Shown: positions 3,123-25,105 of the stretch, one piece after another
Numbering within the stretch: the stretch's first letter is position 1
Layout: each line of letters starts with the position of its first letter
NCBI GenBank assembly: GCA_964501335.1
Contig: CAZCTC010000010.1
Span: 128,001-160,759, forward strand
DNA from: an uncultured Anaerolineales bacterium
Lineage (GTDB): Bacteria; Chloroflexota; Anaerolineae; B4-G1; SLSP01
DNA: 32,759 nucleotides
Reading direction: 5' to 3'
Made by a program: the position numbers and the translations under genes
Notes under the pieces: model-generated
The model's database searches: none
The model's input: only the letters and a program-made list of their open reading frames with translations
Told to the model about the DNA's origin: nothing

Positions 3123-3136
3123 TCAGTTGTGATTGT

Positions 3137-4880: not shown

Positions 4881-4923
4881 ATAAAAAACTTTCGACCTGT
4901 GCCCTCAGCCCGGAAAAGCAAGA

Positions 4924-5182: not shown

Positions 5183-5210
5183 AAGAGTTTTGCGCGGGGC
5201 ATAATATCTG

Positions 5211-6653: not shown

Positions 6654-6671
6654 AATTTTACGAGGTGAAGG

Positions 6672-9937: not shown

Positions 9938-10196
9938 TGTCGCCAGGGCGGCTCTGGAAAAGCCTATGTTTTTGCGCGCATTCTGATGCGCGCAAAAACA
10001 TAAACAAAAAAATTCTCTCTCCCGGTCCAGCGCGTCGTATCTGGCCGGGAAAAGATCATTTGCGGGACGCTAAAAGAGATTTCACCACAGAGGCGCAGAG
10101 AGCACGGAGAAGAAGAGAGGAGATTTTTCTTTAAATTCTTCTCTGTGTTTCCGTGGTGAGTCTTTTCTGGGCCTATTTTCAGGACAGAAGGCCATG
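9938..10196 (+). repeat. Full-length copy B of the composite intergenic repeat. Order: left box tgtcgccagggcggctctggaaaagcc; hairpin TATGTTTTTGCGCGCA-TTCTGA-TGCGCGCAAAAACATA (9965-10002); A-rich tract; tccagcgcgtcgtat; second small hairpin cccggtccag...ctggccggg; catttgcgggacgc; gagatttcacc module; ctttaaattcttctctgtg; ggtgagtctt; ctattttcaggacagaaggccATG.
   Basis: Every module recurs in the other copies (3665-3800, 4924-5182, 8388-8502, 9625-9838, 26341-26813, 29515-29645, 31025-31125, 32500-32759). Confidence 0.75.
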
Positions 10197-10325
10197 CAGT
10201 GGCGGCACCCCGAAAAAAGGTGAAATACCCCGAGGTTTTTTTGCATCCTCTGGATTTGGATTATACTTAAGCTGTTTCCTCTCTGATTGATGTTCCATAT
10301 TTCATTTTGCCTAAGGAGATGCAGG

Positions 10326-12236
10326 ATGGCTCGTCATTTCAAGATTGAATCGCTGCTTTCTGCCCGGCTTTTTCTGAGTCCTCAACTGGTTGATAATCGG
10401 ATTTATTTTATGAGTAACCTTTCGGGCCGTATCGGCCTTTATGCAATGGACAAAGGGGGGAGTGTGCCGGAACCTTTGTTACCTCTGGATATTGCCTTGC
10501 AAAACCCCGTTTTAGTCCATGAAAGCGATTTTTTCTTCGTTTTTCCTAAGCTTGGGAAGATCATGGTGATGATCGATAAGGACGGCGATGAGAATTATCA
10601 GCCCTGTTGGATTCCGCTGTTGGGTGGGATTCCGGAGCCGGTGTTTGGAGACCGGTTTGTCGGTCAACAGGTTTTTGTGACGGAGGCAGATCTCGAGCAT
10701 AATCGCGTTATGTTGCTGGTGGACCATCGGACCGCGCCCATTTATGAGAGTTTTGTGGCCGATCTGGAAAAAGGGACATTGGTCAGTTTGGGGGCCAGCC
10801 CGTACGGCAATGCCTGCCTTGCCGCCGACAAGGATTACCGGCAGTTTATCCTGGCGGACGGTTATATGGGGGGAGATAATGTCCTTTATTATCGCGGGGT
10901 GGAAGATACGGAGCGCCGGTTGATTTACGGTATGCCGTTGGAGGAACGCTCTGCGGGCGTTGAGGTGGTCCGTACTGCTTTTAAAGCCGGGCATCTGCTC
11001 GAGGATGGCAGCGGCGTTTTGGTGATTACCAGCCGGTTCGACGATCAACTCAGCCTGGGATATCTACCCATGGATCGGACCCAGACGGTAGAGCCGGTGA
11101 AAGTGATGGGAACGGTCCATCGCGGCAGCGGCGAGATGGATAACCTGATCTATCTGGAGGGGCTGCGCTATCTGGTGATTTTCAATATCGACGGTTGTTC
11201 TTACGCCTACGAAGGGGCTTTTGATCCAGCCGCGCTTGTTTTCCATGTGGATCGGGTCATTTGCGGGGTGGGCGAATTGCACGACGGCGTTTTGCAACAT
11301 GTGAGCTATGAGAAGGCCAGCGGCGCTTATGCGCTGGCTTTCTGTTCGGCTACGATGCCGGTGCAGCTCTATATTTTGGAGCGGGATGGGACGCTGGCGG
11401 TCCAGACGCGTGAGCGGATGGTGGGAATTCCGATGGATTTGCTGGCGCCCGGCGAGGATGCTTCGTTTATCAGCCACGATGGGCTGCGGATTTCGGCTCG
11501 ACTCTATCTGCCGGCACCGATTTTGGGCTTTGAGGGGCGGCGGCCGGTGGTCTTTTACGTTCATGGAGGGCCGCAGGGGCAGGAGCGCCCGGATTCCACC
11601 TGGTTCTCGATGCCGTTGATTCAGTTCCTGACGCTGCGGGGTTTTGCCGTTTTTGTGCCCAATGTCCGCGGTAGCTCCGGGTATGGGCTGAATTATATGC
11701 GGCAGGTGGATCGCGATTGGGGGGGGAAAGATCGGTTGGACCATGTGGCGGCCTGGCATCACTTGCATGAGGATCCCCGGCTGGATCTGGAGCGGGCGGC
11801 GATTGTGGGCCGATCTTACGGCGGCTATATGACGTTGACCCAGGTCGGGCGACATCCGGAATTGTGGAAAGCCGGTTGTGATATGTTTGGGCCTTATAAT
11901 CTGGCGACCTTTATCGAAAGGTTGCCGGAAACCTGGAAGACGCATTTCTATCTTACGGTAGGAAACCCGGAGACCGAGGCGGCGGAGCTGGAGAAGCGTT
12001 CTCCGAGCAGCTATCTGGATCAACTGGCCTGTCCGTTGCTGGTGATTCAGGGAGCGAACGATCCGCGGGTGCGCCTGGCCGAGTCTGAGGATCTGGTCAA
12101 GCGGTTGCAGGCTCAGGGCAAGCAGGTGGAGCTGCTGATTTTTGAGAATGAGGGCCACGATGTGATCAAGTTTGAAAACAAAGTGCGCTGTTATAACGCC
12201 ATTGTCGATTTCTTCGCCCGGATTTTGCAACCTTAG
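10326..12236 (+). CDS. S9 family serine peptidase (prolyl oligopeptidase, dipeptidyl aminopeptidase or acylaminoacyl-peptidase-like): N-terminal beta-propeller plus C-terminal alpha/beta hydrolase
   Basis: Strong SD aaggag 10313-10318 before ATG 10326 (the ORF track's upstream TTG at 10287 lacks an SD). Nucleophile motif VGRSYGGYM. HGGP motif FYVHGGPQG. Catalytic Asp in GANDPRV and His in EGHD. Confidence 0.9.
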   Translation: MARHFKIESLLSARLFLSPQLVDNRIYFMSNLSGRIGLYAMDKGGSVPEPLLPLDIALQNPVLVHESDFFFVFPKLGKIMVMIDKDGDENYQPCWIPLLGGIPEPVFGDRFVGQQVFVTEADLEHNRVMLLVDHRTAPIYESFVADLEKGTLVSLGASPYGNACLAADKDYRQFILADGYMGGDNVLYYRGVEDTERRLIYGMPLEERSAGVEVVRTAFKAGHLLEDGSGVLVITSRFDDQLSLGYLPMDRTQTVEPVKVMGTVHRGSGEMDNLIYLEGLRYLVIFNIDGCSYAYEGAFDPAALVFHVDRVICGVGELHDGVLQHVSYEKASGAYALAFCSATMPVQLYILERDGTLAVQTRERMVGIPMDLLAPGEDASFISHDGLRISARLYLPAPILGFEGRRPVVFYVHGGPQGQERPDSTWFSMPLIQFLTLRGFAVFVPNVRGSSGYGLNYMRQVDRDWGGKDRLDHVAAWHHLHEDPRLDLERAAIVGRSYGGYMTLTQVGRHPELWKAGCDMFGPYNLATFIERLPETWKTHFYLTVGNPETEAAELEKRSPSSYLDQLACPLLVIQGANDPRVRLAESEDLVKRLQAQGKQVELLIFENEGHDVIKFENKVRCYNAIVDFFARILQP

Positions 12237-12253: not shown

Positions 12254-13594
12254 ATGAGGCGAAGTACCGCTGGAATCGATTTGGAGTTTGACGTTCCCAG
12301 GATTTTTGCCATGTTGCGGCGCCGGCGAAAAGAACGTCCTGTCCGGCGCCGCGCCTGTCTGGAACTGGAACGAAATGTCGGCGGTCCGCTCTGGCAACTG
12401 GTGGTGCTGGGGTTGATCACCAGTGCTTTGTTAAAGGAGCCCTTTTTCTTAGGGCTCACTTTTTGTATGGCGGCTTTTTTGGGGGTTGCCTGGCTGTGGG
12501 ACCATTTCAGCCTGACGGGGGTGCGTTATCGGCGTAAATTTAGTGAGGTGCGCGCTTTTCAGGGGGAAACGGTTATCTTGACTCTGGAAGTGGGCAATCA
12601 AAAGTGGTTGCCGGTGAGCTGGCTGGAGGTGGGCGACATTTTCCCCGGAGAACTGCCGGTGGCCGGCGAACGGGTGATCATCTCTTCATCGACCAATCAG
12701 GTCGAATTCACCACGTTCTGGCATCCGGCCGCTTATCAGAGTTTGACCCGGGTGATGGAAGTGCCCTGTATGCAGCGGGGGTATCATTTTTACGGGCCGG
12801 CAACGGTCCGTACCGGCGACGGCTTCGGCTTTTTCAGTCGGAAGTTGACTTTGCCGGAGCGGGATTTGCTGATCGTCTATCCCCGGCTCTATTCGGCGAC
12901 GGAACTCGATCTGCCTTCGAAGAATCCGTTTGGGGAGCGGCGGACGCTGTTCAAACTTTTTGAGGACCCGTTGCGTCCGGCGGGCATTCGCGACTGGCAG
13001 TTCGGCGATGGGATGCGGCGGGTGCACTGGAAGGCGACCGCGCGTTACGAGCGGTTGCTCAGCCGGATTTACGAGCCGAGCGAGGAGCCGCAGGTGATGA
13101 TTTTGTTGAATGTCTCCACGTTGCCGCGTTATTGGGAGGGGATTGTTCGAGAGTTGTTCGAGCGCACGGTCAGTGTGGCGGGCAGTCTGGCCGCGTTGGC
13201 CATCGAGGAGCGGTTGTCGGTCGGGCTGGCGGCCAATGCTTACTGGCCGGGGAGCGATCAGCGATTGGAGCTCTTCCCGGGGCGGCGGCAGGAGCAGTTG
13301 TTGCATATTTTGGAGTTGCTGGCGGCCGTGACGCCTTATGCCAGTGAATCTTTTGAATCTGTGTTGTTGCAGGTGGCTCCCCGATTGCCCTGGGGAGCCA
13401 CTTTGCTGGTCGTTTCGGCGGTTGCGACCCCCGAATTGTGGGAAACGCTGGTCGATCTGGATCGAGCCGGGCGACAGGTCACGCTCTTCACCCTGGTTGA
13501 GACGCCGCCCGAATTCCCGCCGATCGGCATTCCGGTTTATCATCTACCGCAGTTGATCGACGATCTGGTTATTCCTCAAAAGGTAGCGGAGTAG
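12254..13594 (+). CDS. DUF58 domain protein (vWA-like; usual partner of MoxR ATPases)
   Basis: N-terminal TM. DUF58 signature region IRDWQFGDGMRRVHWKATARYERLLSRIYEPSEEPQVMILLNVS (D-x-R-x-x-x-W-K-A-x-A-R...L-x-x-x-E, then a run of hydrophobics). Confidence 0.8.
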   Translation: MRRSTAGIDLEFDVPRIFAMLRRRRKERPVRRRACLELERNVGGPLWQLVVLGLITSALLKEPFFLGLTFCMAAFLGVAWLWDHFSLTGVRYRRKFSEVRAFQGETVILTLEVGNQKWLPVSWLEVGDIFPGELPVAGERVIISSSTNQVEFTTFWHPAAYQSLTRVMEVPCMQRGYHFYGPATVRTGDGFGFFSRKLTLPERDLLIVYPRLYSATELDLPSKNPFGERRTLFKLFEDPLRPAGIRDWQFGDGMRRVHWKATARYERLLSRIYEPSEEPQVMILLNVSTLPRYWEGIVRELFERTVSVAGSLAALAIEERLSVGLAANAYWPGSDQRLELFPGRRQEQLLHILELLAAVTPYASESFESVLLQVAPRLPWGATLLVVSAVATPELWETLVDLDRAGRQVTLFTLVETPPEFPPIGIPVYHLPQLIDDLVIPQKVAE

Positions 13595-13596
13595 GT

Positions 13597-15063
13597 ATGC
13601 AGCGCGGTGGTTTGTTTCTGGATTTACGGCGCAATTTACTTTATCTGTGCCTGGTAGGAATCGATTCCGCCTGGTTTGCTCTGCTGCTGCCTTTGTTGGG
13701 GGTGCAGTCGACCTTATCCTGGTCGCCGTTGATCTTGTGGGGTATGTTGGCGGTGGGGATGTGCGGCTGTCTGGTGGTGCTGGAGCTTTTCAATCGGATC
13801 GGTTTGGGGAGGCCCTGGTATCCGCTGGCCGTGGCGGCTCTGGTCCTCTTGACGATTGTGGGGCTGATGCGGGTGGTGATTTACAACGGCTGGCCCTTTT
13901 GGAGTTGGGGCTGGGGGGAGCAGATCCTGCTCAGCTTTTTGCTGTTTGAAACCTGGCCGCGGCCGGAGCTGGCGCTGGCTGCGACCGGCTTTTTTGTCTG
14001 GCAGCGGGCTACCTGGGCGACGCGTCGATCGCTGGATTGGCGTGATGTCAGCAGCAATTTCTGGTTGGGCCTCTTCTTTTTGGGCTGCGGCGGGCTCTTT
14101 TGGGAGTTGTGGTTGAAGCAGCCGGCGCCGTTGGCGTTTGTCTGGGGCTATTTTGGATTGGGGATGGTGGCGTTGGCGTTGACGCGGGCCCATACGGCGC
14201 CGTTGCTGGTGCGGAGCATGGGGGCAGAGCTTTCGCCGGTGCGGCTGGCTCAACTGGGGATGACGGTGGGCCTGACCTTGCTGATCGGCGGGTTGAGCTG
14301 GTGGGGGCTTTCACAGCCTTTAATAGGGTTTGTGGCCTGGCTGGGGCCGTTGTGGAACTTTCTCTTTGTGTTGGTGGAAGTGTTGGTGGTATTGTTGATT
14401 TTTGTCGGCTGGCGGTTCTGGCAGTTTATTTCGGAGCTGTTGAAGGGGGAGCTGCTGCCGGCCTTGCAAAATCTGGAGGATATCTCTCGCTCGATTCAGC
14501 AGCTGGGAGAACAATTGGCCCAGCAGGCCGGATTGAATTTTGTCTGGCCTCCCTGGCTCGGGCTGGTTTTGCGTATTGGTGTGGCATTGTTGATTTTGTT
14601 GCCGGGTTTGTGGCTGGTGCTGGTCTATTTGGGGATCATTCAGCCGCCGCGGCGCCGGGAGGACGACGAGTATGCGAATCGATTGTCGGCGGAGCGGTTG
14701 TTGTGGGATGGATTGGATTCGCTGCGCGATCTGGGCCGGTTGATGCGCCGGTATGGGTTCAGCCGGCAGATGCTGGCGGCGATTTCGGTGCAGAATCTCT
14801 ATGCCAATGTGTGTCGTTTGGGGCGGCGGCAGGGGCGGCCGCGGCGGCCGTCGCAGCCCCCGGATGCTTATTTGCCGCAGCTGGTGGCGGCTTTTGAGGG
14901 GCTGGATAGTCAGTTGTCCCGGATCACGGAGGCCTATATGCAGGTGCATTACGGGGATCGGTCGGTTACGAATGAGGAACTGGCCCGGCTGCGGAAGGAT
15001 TATGCGGAGGTGCGGGCGCAGGCGGGGCGGAAGCGGCGCCTGGACGTGAAACGTAAAACGTAA
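13597..15063 (+). CDS. Polytopic membrane protein with a C-terminal DUF4129-like domain (the third usual member of MoxR/DUF58 operons)
   Basis: About 10 hydrophobic helices. C-terminal region GRRQGRPRRPSQPPDAYLPQLVAAFEGLDSQLSRITEAYMQVHYGDRSVTNEELARLRKDY matches the DUF4129 pattern (R..G.P...S.TP.EY......L.......Y...RYG). Confidence 0.7.
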   Translation: MQRGGLFLDLRRNLLYLCLVGIDSAWFALLLPLLGVQSTLSWSPLILWGMLAVGMCGCLVVLELFNRIGLGRPWYPLAVAALVLLTIVGLMRVVIYNGWPFWSWGWGEQILLSFLLFETWPRPELALAATGFFVWQRATWATRRSLDWRDVSSNFWLGLFFLGCGGLFWELWLKQPAPLAFVWGYFGLGMVALALTRAHTAPLLVRSMGAELSPVRLAQLGMTVGLTLLIGGLSWWGLSQPLIGFVAWLGPLWNFLFVLVEVLVVLLIFVGWRFWQFISELLKGELLPALQNLEDISRSIQQLGEQLAQQAGLNFVWPPWLGLVLRIGVALLILLPGLWLVLVYLGIIQPPRRREDDEYANRLSAERLLWDGLDSLRDLGRLMRRYGFSRQMLAAISVQNLYANVCRLGRRQGRPRRPSQPPDAYLPQLVAAFEGLDSQLSRITEAYMQVHYGDRSVTNEELARLRKDYAEVRAQAGRKRRLDVKRKT

Positions 15064-15250
15064 AACGTATTTCCTGTCCTGCGCGGCGTTACAAGGCCGG
15101 GGGGCGGTACTTCAAAGGATGAAAATGGTTTGTCGGGTGCAGTTTCCTGGGGTCTGCGAATCCCAGGCTACCCTAAGGTCGCCCCTTTGGGGCTGAGAAG
15201 GCTCGACAAAAAGGTGCCTGCTAATTTAGCGAAGGCAAAAAAGGGGAAGG

Positions 15251-15288
15251 GGGGAATTTGCACGCCTTCTGAGGCGTGCAAATTCCCC
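15251..15288 (+). repeat. Perfect 16-bp hairpin GGGGAATTTGCACGCC-TTCTGA-GGCGTGCAAATTCCCC, a member of the TTCTGA-loop hairpin family, in the gap between the DUF4129 gene and moxR
   Basis: Exact inverted repeat with the family loop TTCTGA. Preceded by an A/G-rich tract (aaaaaaggggaagggg). No 3' T-tract. Confidence 0.7.
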
Positions 15289-15369
15289 TTAACAACACAC
15301 TCCCCCTTTCCCCCGCTTGCGGGGTGCGAAGCAGGGGGCAGGGGGGATAGAGGGATATAAGGAGGCCTT

Positions 15370-16308
15370 ATGGAGTTCTCAGAGCTGGCGAAAGCGATTA
15401 AACAGAATGTCGGCCGGGTGATCATCGGCAAGGCGGATGTGGTTGAGATGTTGTTGATTGCCCTGTTGACTGAGGGACATGTGCTGTTGGAGGATGTTCC
15501 AGGGATCGGCAAAACGACGCTGGCCAAGGCTTTGGCACGGAGTCTGGATGCTTCTTTTGCGCGCATCCAGTTCACGCCGGATCTGCTGCCGGGCGATGTC
15601 ACAGGGTTGAGCATTTACAATCAGAAAGAGCGGGAGTTTGAGTTTCACGCCGGGCCGGTTTTCCGTCAACTGCTGTTGGCCGATGAAATCAACCGGGCGA
15701 CGCCGCGGACCCAATCCAGCCTGCTGGAGGCCATGCAGGAGCAGCAGGTGACGGTGGACGGCAAGACCTATGCGTTGCCGCGGCCCTTTCTGGTCATTGC
15801 GACGCAGAATCCGATTGAGCTGGAGGGGACCTTTCCCTTGCCGGAGGCGCAGCTGGACCGCTTTTTGATGCAGGTGCGGTTGGGGTATCCCAGCGAAGCT
15901 GAGGAAGAGGAAATTCTCTTGCAATACGAGCGTCAGGATCCGCTGGTGGAGCTGCGGCCGGTGGTAACGATGGCCGAGATTCAGGAATTGCAGCGAAAAG
16001 TGCGGGAGATCCATGTCAATGGGGATGTGCGGCGGTATATCGTGCAGGTGGTGCGGACGACGCGGGAACATGAGGCGGTGGCGCTGGGCGGTTCGCCGCG
16101 GGGGACGCTGGCGCTCTATCGGTCAAGCCAGGCGCTGGCGGCGTTGCGGGGACGGGATTATGTCACGCCGGGCGATGTGCAGCAGCTCTGTCCGGCGATT
16201 TTAACGCATCGCGTGCATATTCGGCCGCAGGTGCGGTTACGAGGGCGTACGCCGGCGCAAGTAGTGGCGGAAATCATTGAAGCGGTGCCGGTACCGGTAG
16301 TTGAATAA
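15370..16308 (+). CDS. MoxR-family AAA+ ATPase
   Basis: SD aaggagg 15357-15363. Walker A GHVLLEDVPGIGKTTLAKALA. Walker B LLADEINRA. Characteristic MoxR length (312 aa) and C-terminal region (YVTPGDVQQL). Confidence 0.95.
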   Translation: MEFSELAKAIKQNVGRVIIGKADVVEMLLIALLTEGHVLLEDVPGIGKTTLAKALARSLDASFARIQFTPDLLPGDVTGLSIYNQKEREFEFHAGPVFRQLLLADEINRATPRTQSSLLEAMQEQQVTVDGKTYALPRPFLVIATQNPIELEGTFPLPEAQLDRFLMQVRLGYPSEAEEEEILLQYERQDPLVELRPVVTMAEIQELQRKVREIHVNGDVRRYIVQVVRTTREHEAVALGGSPRGTLALYRSSQALAALRGRDYVTPGDVQQLCPAILTHRVHIRPQVRLRGRTPAQVVAEIIEAVPVPVVE

Positions 16309-16312
16309 GGCT

Positions 16313-18343
16313 ATGATGGAGATTTCGGGTTATAAAATTCGCGTGAAAATAGCGCGGCTGGCCTTAAGCGGGCAATTTATCTGCCTTACTGGAATCCTGG
16401 TCATTTATTTTGGGCTGGCGTTGGGCTATAGAATTGCGGGGCCTTTTAATCGCCCTGTATGGATGAATTTGTATTTATTGCTGGCGCTGGATATCTGTTC
16501 TTTTATTTCCGTTTTCTGGTTGAGAAGATCGTTGACTCAGGCGGTGTGGGGGTATGCCTGGAGCAATCTCATTTATGTGGTTTTGATGCTGGGCTATCGG
16601 CTGCTCGATTTCAACTCTCCGAAAATCGATCCTCCTTATATTATCTTTTTATTGCATTTGAATATCTTTTCGTTGGGGATTATATTTGGTTTTCGTCCGG
16701 CGTTTAAATATGCCCTGGCGACCGTCGTCGTATTTTTAGTGGTGGGAATTTTCTATACCGAACGGCTGTCGATTGTGGTGGGAATTTTGTTTGCTTTGCT
16801 TATGACCTTTCCTCCTTTGGGGATCGATAAGTTAATGGCGGAGTTGCGGCAAAGCCAGGAAAAATTAAGTATCATTTTTCGAGAATCTCCGGATGTGATT
16901 TTAGTGTTGGATCCGGCGACAGGGAGAATTTGGGAGGGGAATGCCGCTGTCAAATGGGTGTTAGGTTACGTGGAAGAAGAGCTGCGTGGGGAACCTTTCA
17001 GTAAATTGTATGAATCGGATTCGCCGTTGGGAAAGGAGAAACTCTGGTATGTGGAGGCTCAGCGGCGGGATACCCACGGTTCCCAGTTCTTTTTGAAAGC
17101 CGATGGAACGCGCTGTCCGATGGATTGGACGGCGGCGCGCATTCCCTGGGATGAGGATTCGGCGATCCTGATTACGTTACGGGATGTGACGGAACGTTAT
17201 CAGGCGGAGGTGGAGCGAGCTCGTTTTACGGCCCAGTTGGGGGCCGCGGCCGAACTGGCGGCCCGGATCAATGCTTATCTGGATGCCGATCAGTTGTTGC
17301 CGATGGTGGTGGCTCAGGTGCAATCCCGCCTGGATGTGGCCCGGGCGGCGATCTATTTGTTGAATGAGGATTTGCAGGCGGCGCTTTCTCCTGCTGTTAA
17401 AGAGAGTGTGAGCCTGGGGGCATTGATGGCCTCGTCCAGCGTTATTGCCCGGGTGGTTCAGAACCGGGAGATGGTCAGGATTGACGATCTTCAGGAGTTG
17501 TCGTCAGAAGATCTTCCGTTTTTGCAGGCGGGGATGCAGACTCAACTGGTCGTTCCTTTGATTGTGCAGGATTGTCTGTTGGGCGTGATGGATCTTCAGG
17601 ATCTGCGGCCGGGGCGTTTTCATACCATCGATCTGGATGTCTTTTTCACGCTGGGGGTTCAGATCGCGACATCGCTTGAGAATGCGCGGCTCTTTGGGGA
17701 ATTGCAGAAGACGGCCCGTAATTTGCAGGGCCTTTCGCATCGTCTGGTGGCGGTGCAGGAGCAGGAGCGGCGGAACATTGCCTGTGAACTGCACGATGAG
17801 ATCGGGCAGATGTTGACGGCATTGAAGTTAATGCTGGATATGAGCAGCGGCGCCGGGGATTCGCAACAGGAGGCGCGGGATATGGTGCGCGATCTGTTGG
17901 AGCGGGTGCGCAACCTTTCGTTGGAGTTGCGGCCGCCGATGCTGGACGATTTAGGGATTTTGCCGGCGCTGGTCTGGCTTTTCAACCGTTATACCACGCA
18001 GACCCATATCAAAGTGAGTTTTCGCCATTCCGGGTTGGAGCGGCGTTTTACCCCGCAGATTGAGACGGCGGCCTATCGAGTGATCCAGGAATCGTTGACC
18101 AATGTCGCCCGCCATGCTCGTGTGCAAGAGGTCGAGGTGCGGTTGTGGGCGGATGAGGCGCAATTGCAGGTGCAGGTGGAAGATAACGGTCAGGGATTTG
18201 ATCTGGACGAAGTGCTGAGCCAGGCGGGTTCCAATGGATTATCGGGGATGCGGGAACGGGTTATGTTGTTGGGCGGAGAACTGACGATCGATTCCCGGCC
18301 GGGGGCGGGGACTTCGCTGGTGGCGGAGTTGCCCTTGCAATGA
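16313..18343 (+). CDS. Sensor histidine kinase, NarL-partner type (polytopic membrane domain - PAS - GAF - HisKA_3 - HATPase_c). A TTG at 16301 overlapping the moxR stop is an alternative start.
   Basis: HisKA_3 H-box CELHDEIGQMLTALK. HATPase N/G boxes (LTNVARHA, DNGQGFD, GLSGMRERVMLLGG). GAF block before LENARLFGELQ. AT-richer N-terminal membrane domain with a PVWMNLYLL motif. Confidence 0.9.
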   Translation: MMEISGYKIRVKIARLALSGQFICLTGILVIYFGLALGYRIAGPFNRPVWMNLYLLLALDICSFISVFWLRRSLTQAVWGYAWSNLIYVVLMLGYRLLDFNSPKIDPPYIIFLLHLNIFSLGIIFGFRPAFKYALATVVVFLVVGIFYTERLSIVVGILFALLMTFPPLGIDKLMAELRQSQEKLSIIFRESPDVILVLDPATGRIWEGNAAVKWVLGYVEEELRGEPFSKLYESDSPLGKEKLWYVEAQRRDTHGSQFFLKADGTRCPMDWTAARIPWDEDSAILITLRDVTERYQAEVERARFTAQLGAAAELAARINAYLDADQLLPMVVAQVQSRLDVARAAIYLLNEDLQAALSPAVKESVSLGALMASSSVIARVVQNREMVRIDDLQELSSEDLPFLQAGMQTQLVVPLIVQDCLLGVMDLQDLRPGRFHTIDLDVFFTLGVQIATSLENARLFGELQKTARNLQGLSHRLVAVQEQERRNIACELHDEIGQMLTALKLMLDMSSGAGDSQQEARDMVRDLLERVRNLSLELRPPMLDDLGILPALVWLFNRYTTQTHIKVSFRHSGLERRFTPQIETAAYRVIQESLTNVARHARVQEVEVRLWADEAQLQVQVEDNGQGFDLDEVLSQAGSNGLSGMRERVMLLGGELTIDSRPGAGTSLVAELPLQ

Positions 18344-20409
18344 AGACATCTAAGGAAAGCTATTTAGAAATCGATTATTCTGAACAGCTTGCCCGGGAGA
18401 AGATTGCCAGGGTGATTTTGCTTAGCAATGTTATTGCCCTTGGAGCCCTTTTTATTTTCAATCTGGTTAGATTAATCTTAATGTTAACGGAAGAGCCGGG
18501 GTATCAACCCGCCTGGTATTCATTCTTTAGTATGGCGGCGTTGGTGGGGGGCGGGATTGTTGCGTTGGGTTGGATCAGGAGATCGCTTTTTGCGGGAATG
18601 GTGTTTTACGCCTGGTTTGCATTGTTTTGTGTCCTGGTAATGATTGTGGGAGCCTTTATATGGGGAGGTCTGCAACGTTACCCTTTAATAGTGTTAGTTT
18701 TTTATATAGGGATTTTATCTCTCAGTGTTATTGTAGGATATAAGACAGCTTTACCTTATGCAATTGTTGTGTCTTTGGTAATGGTGGTCTGTGGGGTAAT
18801 TTTTAATGATGTGCTTTTTTCAGTACCTTTGGTCGTTACCTCTTATTTAATGGTTTTGCCAGCCTTATTCATTGATTATATGACCGATAGTATAAGACAG
18901 AGTGAACAACGGTTTAAAATCCTTTTTCAGGAATCGCCGGATTTGATTGTGGTCGTTGAACGAGAAACGGGGATTGTGTTACATGTCAATTCGGCGTTGG
19001 AACGTTTTACAGGGTATTTTCCTGAAATGTTGATAGGCAAATCCTTTTTTGATGTTTTTCCTCAAGAAGTGTTTCCTGACTTAACTGAAATTTCAGAGGG
19101 TCAACCCCGAGCCGAATTTCGTGCTGTTGCAGATCGAGCTTTTTATCGGTTGGATGGGACTCTTATTTTTATGGATTTGAGTATAGCTTCAATAGTTTGG
19201 ATGAAGAGATCTGCTTTGTTGGTGGTTTTAAGAGACGTTACTGGGCGCCATCGCGCAGAGGAAGACCGTCAACATTTTACGAAACAATTGCGAGTGGCCG
19301 CAGAGTTGACTGGCCAGATTAATACCTGTCTGAACTCTGAAGCCTTAACTTTCATGATAGAAAATCAAATGGAGCAACTTTTGAATTTGAGTCGGGTGAG
19401 AATTTTTCTCTTTGATGAAAAAAGTCAAACCCTTGTTCGATATGCAGGTGGCTCGGAAATTGTGAAATCTTATCATTTGCAGGATCCCTACCTAGTGGCA
19501 CAAGCTGCCCATGATCTCATTCTGGTTCAGGCCCTTAAAGAATCAAAGATGGATGATGGGAGGAGATTGGATTCTGAGGGGGATATGGGAGGGCAGGTAG
19601 CAGTACCTTTGGTTTCACATGGAAAACTTTTGGGAGTGTTAGACATTCAAGATATCAGTCCAAATCGATTTCATCCCGGTGATCTGGATATTTTCTATAC
19701 TTTGGCAGGGCAAATTGCTGTAGCTTTGGAAAATGCTCGTTTATTTGGAGACTTGCAGAAGACGGCGATGCATTTACAGGGGCTTTCTTTGCGGTTGCTT
19801 GAGGTTCAGGAGCAGGAACGTCGGAATATTGCGTGTGAGTTGCATGATGAGATGGGCCAAATGTTAACTGCTATCAAGTTGCTTTTGGAAATGAAGAAGT
19901 CCAAATTGGGGAGGGCGGCAGATAATTCGGATCAGGAAATTGGGGATCTTGTGTCGGATTTGTTGAATCGAATTCGGAATCTCTCTTTGCAATTGCGACC
20001 GCCGATGCTCGATGATCTGGGGATTTTACCAACTTTAGTATGGTTGTTTAATCGTTATAGCCATCAAACTCAGATAAAGGTTAATTTTAAGCATGTGGGA
20101 TTGGAACGCCGTTTTTCTTCTCAGGTAGAGACAGTTATCTATCGTGTAATTCAAGAATCTTTAACTAATGTAGCACGTTACGCTATGGTGGATAATGTCG
20201 ACGTTTATATCTGGGGGGATGAATCAATTTTACGGTTACAGGTCGACGATAATGGAGTCGGGTTTGATTTGGATAAGGTTTCAGGTCAATTGAGCTCTAA
20301 CGGCCTTTCTGGCATGCAGGAACGGGTTACTTTACTGGGGGGACAATTCTTGATAGATTCTAAACCAAATTTTGGAACCCATTTGATGGCGGAAATTCCC
20401 CTGCAATAA
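18340..20409 (+). CDS. Sensor histidine kinase, tandem paralog of 16313-18343 (membrane domain - PAS - GAF - HisKA_3 - HATPase_c), distinctly AT-richer than its neighbour
   Basis: ATGA start/stop overlap with the upstream kinase. H-box CELHDEMGQMLTAIK. ENARLFGDLQKTAMHLQGL is nearly identical to the paralog. Membrane-domain motif EPGYQPAWYSFFS. Confidence 0.9.
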   Translation: MKTSKESYLEIDYSEQLAREKIARVILLSNVIALGALFIFNLVRLILMLTEEPGYQPAWYSFFSMAALVGGGIVALGWIRRSLFAGMVFYAWFALFCVLVMIVGAFIWGGLQRYPLIVLVFYIGILSLSVIVGYKTALPYAIVVSLVMVVCGVIFNDVLFSVPLVVTSYLMVLPALFIDYMTDSIRQSEQRFKILFQESPDLIVVVERETGIVLHVNSALERFTGYFPEMLIGKSFFDVFPQEVFPDLTEISEGQPRAEFRAVADRAFYRLDGTLIFMDLSIASIVWMKRSALLVVLRDVTGRHRAEEDRQHFTKQLRVAAELTGQINTCLNSEALTFMIENQMEQLLNLSRVRIFLFDEKSQTLVRYAGGSEIVKSYHLQDPYLVAQAAHDLILVQALKESKMDDGRRLDSEGDMGGQVAVPLVSHGKLLGVLDIQDISPNRFHPGDLDIFYTLAGQIAVALENARLFGDLQKTAMHLQGLSLRLLEVQEQERRNIACELHDEMGQMLTAIKLLLEMKKSKLGRAADNSDQEIGDLVSDLLNRIRNLSLQLRPPMLDDLGILPTLVWLFNRYSHQTQIKVNFKHVGLERRFSSQVETVIYRVIQESLTNVARYAMVDNVDVYIWGDESILRLQVDDNGVGFDLDKVSGQLSSNGLSGMQERVTLLGGQFLIDSKPNFGTHLMAEIPLQ

Positions 20410-20575
20410 ATTTTTTATATTACCCCCTGGTTTTTTTGAGACTGTTTTTTTGTTTTTCTGGTTTTTAAGAGGAAAATGCTATAATGTTTGTATCGCTCCC
20501 TGGGGCGTTTCTATCCTGTATGCTCCCAGCCAGGGATGGCGGCATCACCACAACCTGTTTCCAAGGAGGCCAGTT

Positions 20576-20875
20576 ATGGCACACGCAGCGATTAGTTGGA
20601 TTTCGGGAAGGGTTTTTCTTTTTAAAGATTTTGTGGGGATGGTCGAGAAAAACGTTCAGGAAAACGGATGGGATGGTTTTTTCAAGGAACAGGGCGAAGT
20701 GTTTATGAAGGAATTCGGCAAAGCGCCCGATTGGACAGAGGATGAACGGAAAGTTTTTGCCACCGCTTTTGAGAACGGTAGTTTGCGGAAAGTGGTGGAT
20801 CTGTGGTGGGGCAGCTATGTGGAGGCCCGGGAAGCGGGGCTTTTAAAGTCGGCCGCAGAATATTGGGAATTTTAA
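20576..20875 (+). CDS. Small hypothetical protein X1 (99 aa) carrying one copy of an unrecognised ~85-aa domain (motif F-x-A/T-A-F-x-N-x-x-L-R-x-V-V-x-x-W-W-x-x-Y-x-E)
   Basis: SD aaggagg 20563-20569, 6 nt before ATG 20576. Paralogous to both halves of 21104-21661 (VFATAFENGSLRKVVDLWWGSYVEAREAG vs VTFVACFKNLRLREVVVQWWHAYDEGRKKG and ATFTAAFYNSHLRDVVENWWFVYEEE). Confidence 0.55.
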   Translation: MAHAAISWISGRVFLFKDFVGMVEKNVQENGWDGFFKEQGEVFMKEFGKAPDWTEDERKVFATAFENGSLRKVVDLWWGSYVEAREAGLLKSAAEYWEF

Positions 20876-20904
20876 CTCTTAACTTTATTTTTCAGAAGCG
20901 AGGG

Positions 20905-20942
20905 AAGCCCTTCTCGATAGTCTTATCGAGAAGGGCTTTTTG
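20905..20942 (+). terminator. Rho-independent terminator: 15-bp stem AAGCCCTTCTCGATA-gtct-TATCGAGAAGGGCTT followed by TTTTG
   Basis: Perfect inverted repeat plus a 3' T-run, 30 bp after the stop of 20576-20875. Confidence 0.7.
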
Positions 20943-20987
20943 TTGGTAGGGGGAATGGTTAGCATGTTCAAACATTTATGAGCTTGT

Positions 20988-21016
20988 TTGATTTTTTCTC
21001 GAAAACGGCATACAAT
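20988..21016 (+). promoter_or_regulatory. Sigma70-like promoter candidate TTGATT-17 bp-TACAAT upstream of 21104-21661
   Basis: -35 TTGATT 20988-20993, 17-nt spacer, -10 TACAAT 21011-21016, about 90 nt upstream of ATG 21104, in an AT-rich gap. Confidence 0.45.
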
Positions 21017-21103
21017 GGTATTGGTATGCCCTGGCATATTTCATTTTGCTTGGCCAACTTCCAGGGAAGGGGCGAAGCTGTTGTTAAAGTAAGGAGAAGT
21101 GTC

Positions 21104-21661
21104 ATGATAAATCAAATAAAAACTTTACCCCTTGAAGATTATGAAATACATGTGGTTGGGTATCACGATATTTTACGTCTTACGGGATTGATCTTTTTGG
21201 AGCGAGGTTTTGTTGCAAGGGTAGATGCCCGCGGGATCGATGCTGTTCTCGCTGAAATGGGCTCTGTCGATCTGGATGTTGAACAGGCGGTTACCTTTGT
21301 CGCCTGTTTCAAGAATCTTCGCTTGCGTGAAGTTGTGGTGCAGTGGTGGCATGCCTATGATGAGGGGCGGAAAAAGGGTGAGATCCCTCAGGCGGAACCT
21401 TATTGGACTCCTAATAGACCCACCGGTTATCAGGATATTGTACGGCTTTCGGGGTTGGTTTTCTTTCAACAGAATTTTATAGCCAGGGTGGATGCGCTGG
21501 GGCTGGATGCGATGATTGCGATGGAAGCCGTTTATGGTGATTTAACAGCTTTACAACGTGCTACTTTTACGGCAGCTTTCTATAATTCTCATCTGCGGGA
21601 TGTGGTAGAGAACTGGTGGTTTGTTTATGAAGAGGAACGGTCTTTGAACCATATTCCTTAA
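21104..21661 (+). CDS. Hypothetical protein X2 (185 aa) made of two tandem copies of the same ~85-aa WW-motif domain found in 20576-20875
   Basis: SD aaggag 21091-21096 before ATG 21104. The internal halves align with each other (YHDILRLTGLIFLERGFVARVDARGIDAVL vs YQDIVRLSGLVFFQQNFIARVDALGLDAMI; ...VVVQWWHAYDEG vs ...VVENWWFVYEEE). Confidence 0.55.
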   Translation: MINQIKTLPLEDYEIHVVGYHDILRLTGLIFLERGFVARVDARGIDAVLAEMGSVDLDVEQAVTFVACFKNLRLREVVVQWWHAYDEGRKKGEIPQAEPYWTPNRPTGYQDIVRLSGLVFFQQNFIARVDALGLDAMIAMEAVYGDLTALQRATFTAAFYNSHLRDVVENWWFVYEEERSLNHIP

Positions 21662-21754
21662 ACCTGAATAGTTTTGGCTAATGCTTAGCAATGATCGAAG
21701 CCAGGTGATGTTGGCTGTTTTGATTGATCGAGATTCAATTTCGAACTTCGAGAG

Positions 21755-21797
21755 TGTTCCGGGATTTTGAGCCCGGAACATTCTTATTTTTGTTTTT
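21755..21797 (+). terminator. Rho-independent terminator: stem TGTTCCGGG-attttgag-CCCGGAACA followed by TTCTTATTTTTGTTTTTG
   Basis: 9-bp GC stem plus a long T-rich tail, about 95 bp downstream of the 21661 stop. Confidence 0.65.
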
Positions 21798-21853
21798 GAT
21801 TTTAATGGGTCAGGTATAATTAGGAGAAAAATGGGCCCTGGAAGATTTCGCAT

Positions 21854-23659
21854 TTGTTGGTTGTAAGGGAAAGGAGTCCAGTGAGTGATCGTTTGCAATC
21901 TTCTTCATCTGTTCGTTATAAAACAGCTCGTTTAATTTTATGGTTTAATGCTTTCTTTTTGACTGGGGCGACTGTTCTGAGCCTTGGGTTGTTTATATTA
22001 AAAAGATTCTATCAACCCGGTTATGAACCTGCCTGGATTAATTTTTTTAGCACAATTGCGTTATTTGTTTCTGTATGGGTTTCTTTATATCGGATCCGGT
22101 ATTCTCTTTTTCAAGGTTTTTATTTATATGGCTGGTTGGGGTTGATTTGTATTACTATAGTGCTTTTTTATAATGTTTTTGTAGAGCATGAGGTTGAAAT
22201 TCCTTTTATTGTTTTTGCGTTGCATATTGGGATTTTTGCTGCCGGATTGATCCTGGGATTAAGATATGCGTTGATTTATGCCACCGTAGTCAGTGTTATT
22301 GTGACCATAGTGGGATTTTATTGTAAGAATACAGGATTTGCGGTTGCTGCGGTCGGTCTGGCCTACGGCATGACCCTCCCTTCCTGGCTGGTGGATCAGC
22401 TGGAGCGCGATCTGCGGAAAAGCGAAGAGAAATTTATTACGATCTTCCGGGATGCGTTGGATGTGATTCTGGTGGTGGATCTCGATACCCGGGTGATTCT
22501 CAAGGTGAACCGGGCGGTCGAGACGGTGTTGGGGTATGAATCCGAGGTGTTGTTGGGCCAGCCGGTTTCGATTTTATGGTTGCCGGAGGGGGAGCTTTCC
22601 AGTTACCATTTCTGGGAAGATTTGCGCACCAGGAAGGCAATTTTTGAATCGACTTCGTTCCGGCGGGCTGACGGGCTGCTCTGTCCGGTGGATTTGACGG
22701 CGACGGTGATCCCCTGGGAAGATCACAATGCGGCGCTGGTGACGCTGCGCGATGTGACGGAGCGCTATTATGTGGAGGAGCAACTGCGCCGCCATCAAGA
22801 ACAACTGGAACAGCAGGTGCAGGATCGTACGGGGGAGTTGCAGACGGCCAACGATCAGTTGCGGATCGAGGTTTTGGAACGGCAACGAGCCGAAGAGACG
22901 TTGCGGGATCAGGCTGTGGAGCTGGAGGCCCGGAATGTGGAGCTGGATGCGTTTGCCCATACGGTGGCCCACGATCTGAAAAATCCCCTGACTAATTTGA
23001 TCGGCTTCAGCAATCTGCTGGAACGACGTCTGGAACGCCTTTCGCCCGACAAAATAGCTTCGTATGTGCAGATGATCGGTCAAAACGGCCGCAAGATGAA
23101 CAACATCATTAATGAGTTGTTGTTGCTGGCCAGTGTGCGCAAGATTGAAGAGGTGGAGCGCGATGTGCTGGATATGGCCACCATTGTGCATGAGGCGCAG
23201 GATCGCCTGCGGGATATGCTGGCCGAATCTCAGGCGGTGGTGACGGTGCCCGAGCAATGGCCGCCGGCTTTCGGTTACGGGCCCTGGGTGGAAGAAGTAT
23301 GGGCCAACTATATCAGCAACGCGATCAAGTATGGCGGAGTGCCGCCGCGGGTGGAGTTGGGCGCTGAGCGGCTGGTGGATGGGCGGGTGCGCTTTTGGGT
23401 GCGCGATAACGGCAAGGGATTGACCCTTGAGGAACGGGCTCAGCTTTTCACGCTTTTTACCCGGCTGGATAAGGTCCGGGCCCGGGGGCATGGTTTAGGC
23501 CTTTCGATTGTGCGGCGGATTGTGGAGAAATTGGGCGGTGAGGTCGGTGTGGAGAGCGAAGTAGGGCAGGGAAGCTGTTTTTCCTTTATTTTACCGGCGG
23601 CTGCGGTATCTATGGCGGTGCAGCCCACGTCGACCCCGTTGCTGGGCCGGCAGGATTGA
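21854..23659 (+). CDS. Sensor histidine kinase (membrane domain homologous to those of the two preceding kinases - PAS - coiled-coil - HisKA - HATPase_c). The GTG at 21881 after SD aaggag (21871-21876) is the more likely start.
   Basis: Membrane motif QPGYEPAWINFFS. H-box VAHDLKNPLTNL. N/G boxes (YISNAIKYG, DNGKGL, GHGLGLSIVRRIVEKLGG). Nucleotide composition switches from AT-rich to GC-rich at about 22380, just after the last TM helix. Confidence 0.85.
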   Translation: MLVVRERSPVSDRLQSSSSVRYKTARLILWFNAFFLTGATVLSLGLFILKRFYQPGYEPAWINFFSTIALFVSVWVSLYRIRYSLFQGFYLYGWLGLICITIVLFYNVFVEHEVEIPFIVFALHIGIFAAGLILGLRYALIYATVVSVIVTIVGFYCKNTGFAVAAVGLAYGMTLPSWLVDQLERDLRKSEEKFITIFRDALDVILVVDLDTRVILKVNRAVETVLGYESEVLLGQPVSILWLPEGELSSYHFWEDLRTRKAIFESTSFRRADGLLCPVDLTATVIPWEDHNAALVTLRDVTERYYVEEQLRRHQEQLEQQVQDRTGELQTANDQLRIEVLERQRAEETLRDQAVELEARNVELDAFAHTVAHDLKNPLTNLIGFSNLLERRLERLSPDKIASYVQMIGQNGRKMNNIINELLLLASVRKIEEVERDVLDMATIVHEAQDRLRDMLAESQAVVTVPEQWPPAFGYGPWVEEVWANYISNAIKYGGVPPRVELGAERLVDGRVRFWVRDNGKGLTLEERAQLFTLFTRLDKVRARGHGLGLSIVRRIVEKLGGEVGVESEVGQGSCFSFILPAAAVSMAVQPTSTPLLGRQD

Positions 23660-23669
23660 GGTTTTACCG

Positions 23670-24377
23670 ATGGAGGTGATCTGGGCCGGGTTGATTGAAG
23701 GCTTGCGCTTGTTTTTTACCGGTGATCCGGCTTTGTGGACCGTGATCGGACGCTCGGCTCAGGTGAGCGGGGTGGCGTTGCTGGTGAGCAGTTTGTTGGG
23801 CGTTCCCGCCGGCGCGGTGTTGGGGCTGACCCGTTTTCCTGGTCGGCGTCTGGTGCAGGCTCTGGTTTATACCGGAATGGGGCTGCCGCCGGTAGTGGTT
23901 GGGCTGGCGGTCTATCTGTTGCTTTCGCGCAACGGCATCCTCGGGCCGTTGCATTGGTCCTGGGTCCCCGAACTTTTTACCCCTGAGGCGATGATTTGGG
24001 CTCAGGTGGTGATTGCCGTGCCGATGGTGGTGGGCTTCACGATGGCGGCGGTGGCCGGGGTGGATCCTGAACTGGGGCGGCAACTGGCCGCTCTGGGGGC
24101 GACGCGGTTGCAGGTGGGCCTGGCGGTGCTGCGCGAGGCGCGTTTGGGGGTGCTGATCTCGATCATCGCCGGGTTGGGGAGCATTATTTCCGAGGTTGGG
24201 GCGGTGATGATGGTGGGCGGCAATATTGAGGGCTATACGCGGGTTTTGACTACCGCTATTATGCTGGAGACCCGGCAGGGCAATTTCGATCTGGCGATTG
24301 GATTGGGGCTGGTTCTGTTGGGCCTTTCGTTTGTGATCAATCTGGCGATGACTTTGTTGCAGGGAAAGGGACGTTGA
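23670..24377 (+). CDS. ABC transporter permease (TupB/ModB/CysTW-like small-anion importer family; substrate not determinable)
   Basis: 235 aa, 5-6 TM. EAA-like loop LAALGATRLQVGLAVLREARLGVLISIIAGLG. Its stop overlaps the ATPase start (TGATG). Confidence 0.8.
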   Translation: MEVIWAGLIEGLRLFFTGDPALWTVIGRSAQVSGVALLVSSLLGVPAGAVLGLTRFPGRRLVQALVYTGMGLPPVVVGLAVYLLLSRNGILGPLHWSWVPELFTPEAMIWAQVVIAVPMVVGFTMAAVAGVDPELGRQLAALGATRLQVGLAVLREARLGVLISIIAGLGSIISEVGAVMMVGGNIEGYTRVLTTAIMLETRQGNFDLAIGLGLVLLGLSFVINLAMTLLQGKGR

Positions 24378-25105
24378 TGACGGCATCGATTTACAGGTTG
24401 GAAGGGGTGCGCCGGCTTTATCAGGGGCGGCCCGTGGTGGATATCGCGCAGCTGGATGTGGAACCGGGAGAGATTCTGGCGATTGTGGGGCCAAGCGGGG
24501 CGGGAAAATCGACGTTGTTGCGGCTGCTCAATTTTTTGGAGTTTCCTGACAGCGGTACGCTTCATTATCGCGGGCACTCTGTGACGCATGAGTCGGTGAC
24601 GCTGGCGCTGCGTCGTGAAGTGACGACAGTCTTTCAACGGCCGGCGTTGCTTTCAATGAGCGTGATGGAGAATGTGACTTACGGGTTGCATCTGCGCGGC
24701 GAGCGCGGGGGGCGGGCCCGGGTGGAGACGGTGCTGGAGCGGATGGGGCTGGCGGCCTTGAGCAAGGCGCCGGCGCGGACGCTTTCCGGCGGTGAGGCGC
24801 AGCGGGTAGCTCTGGCCCGCGCGTTGGTGATCCGGCCGGCGGTGATGTTGCTGGATGAACCTACGGCGAATCTGGATCCTTACAATGTGGGGTTGATCGA
24901 ATCGGTGGTGGCCGGGATGAATCAGGAAGAAGGCACGACGATGGTGCTGGTGACCCATAACATTTTTCAGGCCCGCCGATTGGCCCGGCGCGTTGTTTTT
25001 TTGCTTAACGGGCAGGTTGTTGAGGTCGCTCCGAGCCGGGCCTTTTTTGAAATGCCCGTCGATCCGCGAACGGCGGCTTTTGTGCGCGGCGAGATGGTTT
25101 GTTAG
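24377..25105 (+). CDS. ABC transporter ATP-binding protein
   Basis: Walker A GPSGAGKST. Signature LSGGEAQR. Walker B MLLDEPTANLD. H-loop VLVTHN. Confidence 0.9.
   Translation: MTASIYRLEGVRRLYQGRPVVDIAQLDVEPGEILAIVGPSGAGKSTLLRLLNFLEFPDSGTLHYRGHSVTHESVTLALRREVTTVFQRPALLSMSVMENVTYGLHLRGERGGRARVETVLERMGLAALSKAPARTLSGGEAQRVALARALVIRPAVMLLDEPTANLDPYNVGLIESVVAGMNQEEGTTMVLVTHNIFQARRLARRVVFLLNGQVVEVAPSRAFFEMPVDPRTAAFVRGEMVC

Follow-up and report, generated by a model that had tools for sequence, protein, structure and literature searches.

A low-GC block with sharp boundaries within a sensor kinase array of an uncultured Anaerolineales bacterium

A 32,759-nt stretch of DNA from an uncultured Anaerolineales bacterium (GenBank contig CAZCTC010000010.1, positions 128,001 to 160,759), here called the window, carries a tandem cluster of three sensor histidine kinase genes (K1, K2 and K3) and two small genes situated between K2 and K3 (S1 and S2). 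Between 18339 and 22340, the G + C (GC) content of this array falls from about 0.58 to about 0.41, with sharp steps at both ends, the right-hand one cutting through K3. Divergence from the one close relative found is unequal along the block, and K3 has the ancestral architecture of a kinase family whose genes commonly follow an S gene. The evidence supports a history of the low-GC DNA different from that of its flanks, and we give somewhat better than even chances to the explanation that recombination made a mosaic of a lineage-specific array of S-K modules. The genes concerned are listed below.

K1, 16301..18343, + strand: sensor kinase with six transmembrane (TM) helices, 6TM-PAS-GAF-HisKA_3-HATPase, from its open reading frame (ORF) and Pfam; the alternative start ATG 16316 gives 675 aa, and a 675-aa gene call is also found in locus L001
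K2, 18340..20409, + strand: 6TM-PAS-GAF-HisKA_3-HATPase kinase; its ATG overlaps the TGA of K1 (ATGA)
S1, 20576..20875, + strand: 99-aa S-family member, a small cytoplasmic protein with the invariant WW motif; ribosome-binding site AAGGAGG
S2, 21104..21661, + strand: 185 aa, two tandem S-family (S1-like) domains
K3, 21881..23659, + strand: 6TM-PAS-coiled coil-HisKA-HATPase kinase with a composition step at codon ~153, between TM5 and TM6; GTG 21881, after GGAAAGGAG, is the likelier start, the ORF opening at TTG 21854
ABC permease gene, 23670-24377, adjoining K3: GC content at third codon positions (GC3) 0.74

Composition steps and divergence tracts

A preliminary description of the window had reported an AT-rich block from 18340 to about 22380, with third codon positions sharing in the shift. 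In 500-nt windows, GC was 0.36-0.47 over 18251-22500 and 0.52-0.65 on either side. A two-change-point likelihood scan over 15370-25105 placed the block at 18340-22340, and single-boundary maximum-likelihood change points were obtained at 18339 (interval of 2 log-likelihood units (lnL), 18324-18361) and 22340 (22326-22351). Both outer steps are therefore sharp, each 2-lnL interval spanning less than 40 nt. The block is thus borne out by window GC where it had been described, with its right boundary corrected from about 22380 to 22340.

Third codon positions were compared with those of 21 genes outside the kinase cluster, for which GC3 is 0.679 ± 0.052 (range 0.57-0.76). The values within the cluster, with z scores against this reference, are as follows.

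K2 (18340-20409): GC3 0.40, z = -5.3
S2 (21104-21661): GC3 0.42, z = -4.9
K3, codons 1-153: GC3 0.29, z = -7.4
S1 (20576-20875): GC3 0.52, z = -2.9, a mild shift only
K3, remainder: GC3 0.70

The third positions are therefore shifted as proposed in K2, S2 and the 5′ part of K3 (0.29-0.42, against 0.68 ± 0.05 in the flanking genes), while S1, which had been counted in the AT-rich island, is affected only mildly. For nearly every amino acid, codons ending in G or C are depleted inside the block. Within K3, GC3 jumps from 0.29 to 0.70 across about 25 nt. This step had been placed just after the last TM helix; it does lie inside K3 and is very sharp, but it falls between TM5 and TM6, so that the last helix, together with the AYGMTLPSWLVD block, is GC-rich.

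The shift extends beyond the third position. The first and second codon positions of K2 are also lower (0.525/0.335, compared to 0.58/0.38 in K1), and K2 contains more FYMINK and fewer GARP residues, as a long stay at low GC would lead one to expect. By the Muto-Osawa and Lawrence-Ochman regressions, the three positional values of K2 (0.525, 0.335 and 0.40) and its amino-acid usage match those of a gene equilibrated at ~42% GC. Tetranucleotide signatures corrected for mononucleotide content gave correlations of 0.72-0.77 between block and flanks, 0.82-0.89 between the flanks and 0.74-0.83 for K1 alone, a contrast too small to be decisive for sequences this short.

K1 had been described as GC-rich. 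This does not hold for its first ~200 codons, which encode the membrane domain: change points delimit a stretch at 16298..16909 (+ strand) with 43% GC (0.430) and a GC3 of 0.52 (z = -3.0). The stretch runs from the K1 start codon to the TM/PAS border and lies outside the island of the preliminary description; no relative covers it.

The sole close relative found, L091, is a 1909-nt contig from another sample. It was reached through the 90%-identity cluster of S1; among nine window proteins looked up in such clusters (including MoxR, K1, K2, S1, S2 and K3), S1 was the only one with a second member. L091 carries the 3′ end of a K1 ortholog (GC3 0.79), whose stop codon is immediately followed by the S1 leader and S1, and then a kinase remnant of ~120 nt and an S2 gene. 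K2 has no counterpart in L091 between K1 and S1. Divergence from L091 changes abruptly along the alignment, coinciding with the change in composition, and the block resolves into three tracts, for which no strand applies.

Tract A, 18345..20468: K2; 41.6% GC; without counterpart in L091; left change point 18339
Tract B, 20470..20850: S1 promoter/leader and most of S1; 49.6% GC; 88-95% identical to L091
Tract C, 20851..22340: last codons of S1, terminator, S2 and TM1-5 of K3; 40.9% GC; 53-70% identical to L091; right change point 22340

Substitutions per synonymous (dS) and nonsynonymous (dN) site between L091 and the window were estimated by the Nei-Gojobori method.

K1 3′ end: dS 0.54, dN 0.039, nucleotide identity 88%
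S1: dS 0.59, dN 0.050, nucleotide identity 88-95%; dN/dS 0.08
S2: dS 1.64, dN 0.25, nucleotide identity 53-70%; synonymous sites saturated

S1 and its leader diverge like native K1, and the 380 nt of Tract B were therefore co-inherited with it, which contradicts the earlier view of one continuous island. Only 230 nt separate S1 from S2, yet dS is three-fold higher in S2. The S2 gene of L091 has a native-like GC3 of 0.64 (0.42 in the window), while S1 has a GC3 of 0.52-0.54 in both lineages. The two non-native tracts are nearly equal in GC (0.416 and 0.409). In all three comparisons dN/dS is 0.07-0.15, which indicates purifying selection and hence functional genes rather than decaying DNA. As a synteny check for an insertion, L091 gives a divided answer: K2 is missing there, but S1 (88-95% identity) and an S2 are present.

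Between S1 and S2, at 1190-1300 of L091, lies an in-frame remnant of a K1/K2-type kinase, consisting of the first six codons (MEISGY) fused to approximately the last twenty (..SKPG*GTSLTAELPLQ*). This remnant implies that the ancestral array had a kinase after S1 (S-K-S-K), and that kinases were lost here by internal deletion. The S-K array at this locus is thus dynamic.

The kinase family and its S proteins

K1 and K2 share the same architecture, as had been noted, but with 44% identity overall they are not the close paralogs they were taken for. Their identity is 27% in the membrane domain, 36% in PAS, 38% in GAF, 74% in the dimerization and histidine phosphotransfer domain (DHp) and 68% in the catalytic and ATP-binding domain (CA). 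Both match PF07730 (HisKA_3) and PF02518 (HATPase_c) above the Pfam cut-offs and contain the H-box ..ACELHDE(I/M)GQ... K3 matches PF00512 (48 bits) and PF02518 (82 bits) and contains the H-box AHDLKNPL. The motif PGY(E/Q)PAW..FFS, earlier ascribed to all three kinases, is strict in K2 and K3; K1 has GPFNRPVWMNLY instead.

Among 5.8 billion proteins, the top match of K2 is K1 (44% identity, 97% coverage), and the second is 40% identical over 56% of K2. K2 is not evidently a tandem paralog that arose by duplication in place, and a foreign donor is not demonstrable either. K3 has ~20 full-length homologs in Anaerolineae metagenome-assembled genomes (MAGs), at 44-52% identity and 95-97% coverage, with the same 6TM-PAS-HisKA-HATPase architecture; these are frequently overlapping tandem kinase pairs. 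A profile of the membrane domain built from all three kinases found only 41 matches in 1.84 billion representative proteins; the twelve top matches were retrieved, seven of which have the K3 architecture and one (P0130) that of K1 and K2. In this rare kinase family of the Anaerolineae, the 6TM-PAS-HisKA-HATPase arrangement is standard and ancestral. That makes K3 a mosaic allele and not a novel domain fusion, contrary to the proposal of an imported sensor joined to a native core.

In the family alignment, the AT-rich part of K3 is 21-36% identical to its homologs and the core 46-65%. The AT-rich part lies ~0.06, or one standard deviation (sd), below the family regression of membrane identity on core identity, which fits, without deciding the matter, a homologous allele that has diverged somewhat further. 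Partitioned identities of K3 with 19 family members, a comparison of low resolution, revealed no clear conflict between TM1-5 and the core.

The membrane domain has no match in Pfam or NCBIfam. An AlphaFold2 (AF2) model of the N-terminal 185 residues of K3, made from a 17-sequence alignment (predicted local distance difference test (pLDDT) 88.7), contains a linker helix and six membrane helices, the loops between which are very short. The modelled domain thus appears to be a six-helix bundle with minimal loops and a helix joined to a cytoplasmic output. In its six tightly packed TM helices, very short loops and cytoplasmic helix leading to the output, it resembles the hexahelical (6TM) modules of class III adenylyl cyclases and of CqsS, a kinase of quorum sensing (PMC4821796, PMC9433096). 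The likeness is one of predicted fold: identity is 6-10%, no Pfam or NCBIfam family matches the domain, and the output here is PAS plus histidine kinase. K1, K2 and K3 are predicted to be membrane-embedded receptors signalling to HisKA_3- or HisKA-type phosphotransfer cores.

The three kinases form a tandem cluster of orphans, as no receiver domain is encoded between 12254 and 29449 according to Pfam and hence no response regulator adjoins them as in a two-component operon. The nearest LuxR-type regulator, at 6672-7298, could be a partner of the HisKA_3 kinases K1 and K2.

S1 and S2 had been introduced as a new family. They are indeed unannotated, but the family is common to other Anaerolineae, where it is syntenic with the kinase. 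A word-indexed search with S2 returned only S2 itself, an apparent orphan status that was overturned by context look-ups, which yielded ~15 relatives. On contigs with K3 homologs, an ORF of 86-87 aa lies directly upstream of the kinase, and its product matches S1, and likewise either half of S2, at 38-51% identity (E 1e-15 to 1e-25). The closest relatives of S2 are the 86-87-aa S proteins of L083, L084 and L086, at 38-51% per half, and the S2 of L091 at ~65%. The family is defined by a domain of 86-102 aa with invariant G, F, F, G, D, F, F, LR, VV, WW, Y, E and R positions. No match to it was found in Pfam, NCBIfam, the PDB or PHROG, and no viral relative. An AF2 model of S2 made without an alignment was unusable (pLDDT 37).

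An S gene lies directly upstream of the kinase, on the same strand, in 6/7 kinase-seeded loci. When metagenomes were scanned with a four-sequence S alignment, four more loci were found, all four with a kinase directly downstream of S. Three of these four kinases clearly have the 6TM membrane domain, the one in L090 matching the K3 core only, and weakly; one S-seeded locus reads S-K-S-K. Of four additional loci looked up from the kinase, three have S upstream, one of them as S-K-S-K, with E-values of 1e-31 to 1e-42 for the S hidden Markov model (HMM). Since S stands directly upstream of the kinase in relatives, S2-K3 is a conserved module that is cut by the composition step.

The modules of relatives have a near-native GC3 of 0.48-0.61, a little lower than the 0.53-0.78 of their neighbours, the exceptions being a low-GC hydrolase gene (0.35) and two short ORFs in L084. 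None of the relatives' modules contains an intragenic GC3 step.

Small proteins that modulate sensor kinases include Sda and KipI for KinA, FixT for FixL, and MgrB or SafA for PhoQ. Like these, the S proteins are small, lack enzymatic motifs and are genetically associated with a sensor kinase. They differ in having no detectable sequence relation to them and in being encoded by an upstream gene with its own promoter and terminator, the partnership being read from synteny. To judge from this gene order, the S proteins probably act in the cytoplasm as accessory partners to the kinases encoded downstream. The S protein (~87 aa) and the 6TM sensor domain are two unannotated, tightly linked families in uncultured Chloroflexota, and mildly novel. 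It is tempting, if doubtful, to go further: the S-K pair may represent an undescribed signalling module of Anaerolineae-type Chloroflexota, composed of a small cytoplasmic S protein and a kinase whose six-helix membrane bundle, similar in shape to the anchor of adenylyl cyclases, would be the receptor, in which S and TM1-5 would be a co-adapted specificity cassette swapped between lineages at conserved blocks, with the transmitter core remaining native and a shared inverted repeat in the S leaders serving as operator.

Origin of the low-GC block

In the mosaic explanation, the unit of the array would be a module of a ~87-aa cytoplasmic S protein and a downstream sensor histidine kinase with a six-helix bundle, PAS, an optional GAF and a transmitter. 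We infer that homology-guided recombination most likely brought in DNA from a relative of lower GC content (about 41-42%) with a homologous S-K array of its own, perhaps in one patchy event. The non-vertical tracts would be 18345-20468 (K2) and 20851-22340 (S1 end, terminator, S2 and TM1-5 of K3), with 380 nt of native DNA between them. K2 would have been added or replaced, and the DNA from the 3′ end of S1 through S2 and helices 1-5 of K3 would have been replaced, the TM6-PAS-HisKA-HATPase part of K3 being kept. The breakpoints lie at or beside blocks conserved in the families, namely the kinase C-terminus (..AELPLQ-stop), the WW..EAREAG block of the S protein and the AYGMTLPSWLVD block of kinase TM6.

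Several observations weigh against this reading. Among 5.8 billion proteins no donor was found, nothing being closer than 44% to K2 or 52% to K3, and the nearest known homolog of K2 is its neighbour K1. Relatives too show a mild AT shift in their S and kinase genes, and all 11 other module-bearing loci have 51-61% GC. The sole relative is 1.9 kb long and reaches neither K3 nor the 5′ end of K1. The absence of K2 from L091 may be a deletion, as that lineage demonstrably deleted another kinase, and the direction of the S2 replacement is read from composition alone. In K3, TM1-5 are just ~1 sd beyond the expected divergence, a weak test at the protein level. Neither mobility genes nor a tRNA were found in the window, and no repeats flank the block.

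The main rival, which we disfavour as unlikely while taking it seriously, is divergence in situ. Here K2 would be an ancient tandem paralog of K1, in an array that is native in its entirety, the low GC would result from local, AT-biased, accelerated evolution of weakly expressed lineage-specific genes, perhaps because a non-recombining region escapes GC-biased gene conversion, and K2 would have been lost in the L091 lineage. Such an origin is consistent with K1 being the closest homolog of K2 anywhere, with transmitter cores 68-74% identical, with overlapping tandem kinase pairs being typical of the family and with the kinase deletions at this locus in L091. The mild AT shift of the relatives' S and kinase genes, the GC3 of S1 in both lineages (0.52-0.54) and the fact that neither a donor nor a low-GC host of the module was found point the same way. 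It is harder to reconcile with a GC3 that rises from 0.29 to 0.70 within ~25 nt of one gene, since both sides of that step share a single expression level, and with a dS of 1.64 in S2 and 0.59 in S1, 230 nt apart. Purifying selection (dN/dS 0.07-0.15) and the shift of positions 1 and 2 and of amino-acid usage, besides position 3, also argue against it, and we know of no local process that gives such tract-like boundaries. The preliminary description had favoured a single foreign island at 18340-22380, bringing in K2, S1, S2 and a sensor module that was joined onto a native PAS-HisKA-HATPase core. The low-GC stretch is unbroken and ends sharply on both sides, K2 is absent from L091, and S2 and the 5′ end of K3 share the composition of K2, all as an island would have it. 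We nevertheless consider it improbable, because the S1 tract co-diverges with native K1, both the 6TM-PAS-HisKA-HATPase architecture and the position of S upstream of the kinase are ancestral in the family, the step falls within the membrane domain (TM5/TM6) rather than at a domain border, and no integrase, tRNA or direct repeat was found.

Two explanations that need no unusual history fare worse. The window comes from a metagenome assembly and its junctions lie in a gene family with conserved blocks, so an assembler might have joined the homologous clusters of a GC-rich and an AT-rich population. Such a chimera is very improbable. The same gene arrangement is repeated in JGI contig 3300022666 (83 kb) and in a Logan contig (11 kb), and the nine window proteins looked up are also on record from an NCBI contig of 160,759 bp. 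The outer junctions keep the reading frames and the ATGA overlap; with the native tract 20470-20850 inside the block, four in-frame chimeric joins would be needed; and no long k-mers are common to DNA of 41% and DNA of 58% GC whose identity reaches 65% at most. Membrane-protein coding, with its hydrophobic, T-rich codons, is hardly credible as the source of the shift. Low-GC stretches do encode all three membrane domains, with GC1 and GC2 reduced in them; however, the third positions are the most affected, the PAS, GAF and kinase domains of K2 equal its membrane domain in AT content, the soluble S2 is just as AT-rich, and the adjoining ABC permease gene has a GC3 of 0.74. The GC3 data thus refute this artefact, on which the preliminary description had been prepared to give up its island.

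Judged as a genomic island, the block deviates in composition (GC 0.41-0.42 against ~0.58, GC3 z -4.9 to -7.4), but mobility genes, tRNA and direct repeats were not found and it is not wholly absent from L091. Judged as a mosaic locus, it has the abrupt change in divergence but no identifiable donor lineage. Mosaic recombination is of a known kind, as in the mosaic pbp genes of streptococci, the low-GC O-antigen and capsule loci of enterobacteria and the patchy donor tracts left after natural transformation. In common with such loci, the present one has sharp tracts of divergence and composition, also within genes, breakpoints at conserved blocks, preserved reading frames, no mobility genes and an alternation of native and apparently imported DNA. 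A kinase array made compositionally mosaic by recombination is therefore not a new type of phenomenon; the locus differs in being a sensor-kinase array of an uncultured Chloroflexota bacterium, with composition as the sole guide to the direction of exchange.

The hallmarks listed for lineage-specific histidine kinase expansion include orphan status and domain shuffling (Alm et al. 2006, PMC1630713). The present array shares with such expansions its tandem paralogous kinases without a response regulator, and combines GAF-HisKA_3 (K1, K2) with HisKA (K3). That study contrasts expansion with horizontal transfer, whereas here both seem active on one array, and the exchange replaces part of a homologous sensor domain, unlike domain shuffling.

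The findings do not overturn current understanding. They do illustrate that a visually homogeneous low-GC "island" can conceal alternating native and non-native tracts, and that a gene that looks like an orphan, or an architecture that looks chimeric, can cease to do so when relatives are found by synteny. The mosaic reading would make K3 a clean case in which part of the membrane sensor domain of a histidine kinase was replaced within the gene, and the predicted fold of the 6TM domain connects it with the debate on whether the membrane anchors of adenylyl cyclases act as receptors.

Leader sequences and surrounding genes

The coordinates of the small genes, their promoter-like sites and their terminators were found as described earlier. 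A good ribosome-binding site precedes both S1 and S2, and a canonical terminator follows each of them. Hexamers resembling -10 boxes were read from the sequence upstream of S1, S2 and K3, of which a promoter scan flagged the S2 site only. The leader and terminator features are as follows.

Inverted repeat, S1 leader, 20497..20536, + strand: TCCCTGG-N27-CCAGGGA, between -10 box and ribosome-binding site
S1 terminator, 20905..20938, + strand: intrinsic, perfect 15-nt stem followed by a T run (inverted repeat I5)
Inverted repeat, S2 leader, 21029..21067, + strand: CCCTGG-N27-CCAGGGA, between -10 box and ribosome-binding site
S2 terminator, 21750..21785, + strand: intrinsic, 14-bp stem followed by a T run

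The repeat (T)CCCTGG-N27-CCAGGGA occurs twice in the window, in the S1 and S2 leaders only, where 0.03 occurrences are expected by chance. It is kept in L091 (about 722-761 and 1386-1424), even inside the divergent S2 tract, and was not seen upstream of the S genes in the distant loci L083, L084 and L086. Predicted RNA folding of the S leaders was no better than that of shuffled sequences, which lends no support to a structured leader RNA. The repeat is accordingly more likely to be an operator bound by a protein.

Scanning the ORFs of the window against Pfam revealed no integrase, transposase or other mobility domain. There is no tRNA in the window, and no repeats flanking the low-GC block were found. 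A phage origin received no support, with no PHROG match and no relative in viral contigs. Over 15000-25000, Rfam gave a single sub-threshold match, which lies outside the low-GC block. This match, to the Acido-Lenti-1 small RNA, is in the spacer between DUF4129 and MoxR at 15146-15194 and scores 23.4 bits (E 0.068), the gathering score being 37. A perfect 17-nt hairpin is found in the same spacer (15251-15267 / 15272-15288).

Upstream of the array, the genes at 12254-16308 are ordered DUF58, DUF4129, MoxR, and the kinase cluster begins 8 nt after, or overlaps, the MoxR stop codon. In a MoxR synteny screen of 185,579 species genomes, the closest MoxR of any GTDB species representative was 75% identical, and the top matches were Chloroflexia or Anaerolineae MAGs. 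These relatives have the order MoxR-DUF58-DUF4129, and kinases are absent beside MoxR there; owing to this different neighbourhood, the MoxR-bearing genomes are uninformative on insertion. DUF58 lies directly 3′ of MoxR in 62 of the 80 related Chloroflexota loci fetched. The order seen in the window occurs in none of the 80, which implies that the MoxR operon was rearranged in this genome.

The left part of the window (87-7298) is rich in signalling genes, encoding a 1011-aa dCache-HAMP-GAF-PAS kinase, a PAS kinase (3759-4880) and the LuxR-type response regulator (6672-7298), and a Cas4-like PD-(D/E)XK protein is also encoded there (3137-3664). A further GC dip (0.46) at 10001-10750 covers the spacer upstream of an S9 peptidase gene and the 5′ end of that gene. 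Of the 26 larger ORFs taken as genes, 22 are on the + strand. GC skew is positive (about +0.1 to +0.35) in nearly all windows up to ~29250 and is unchanged across the low-GC block.

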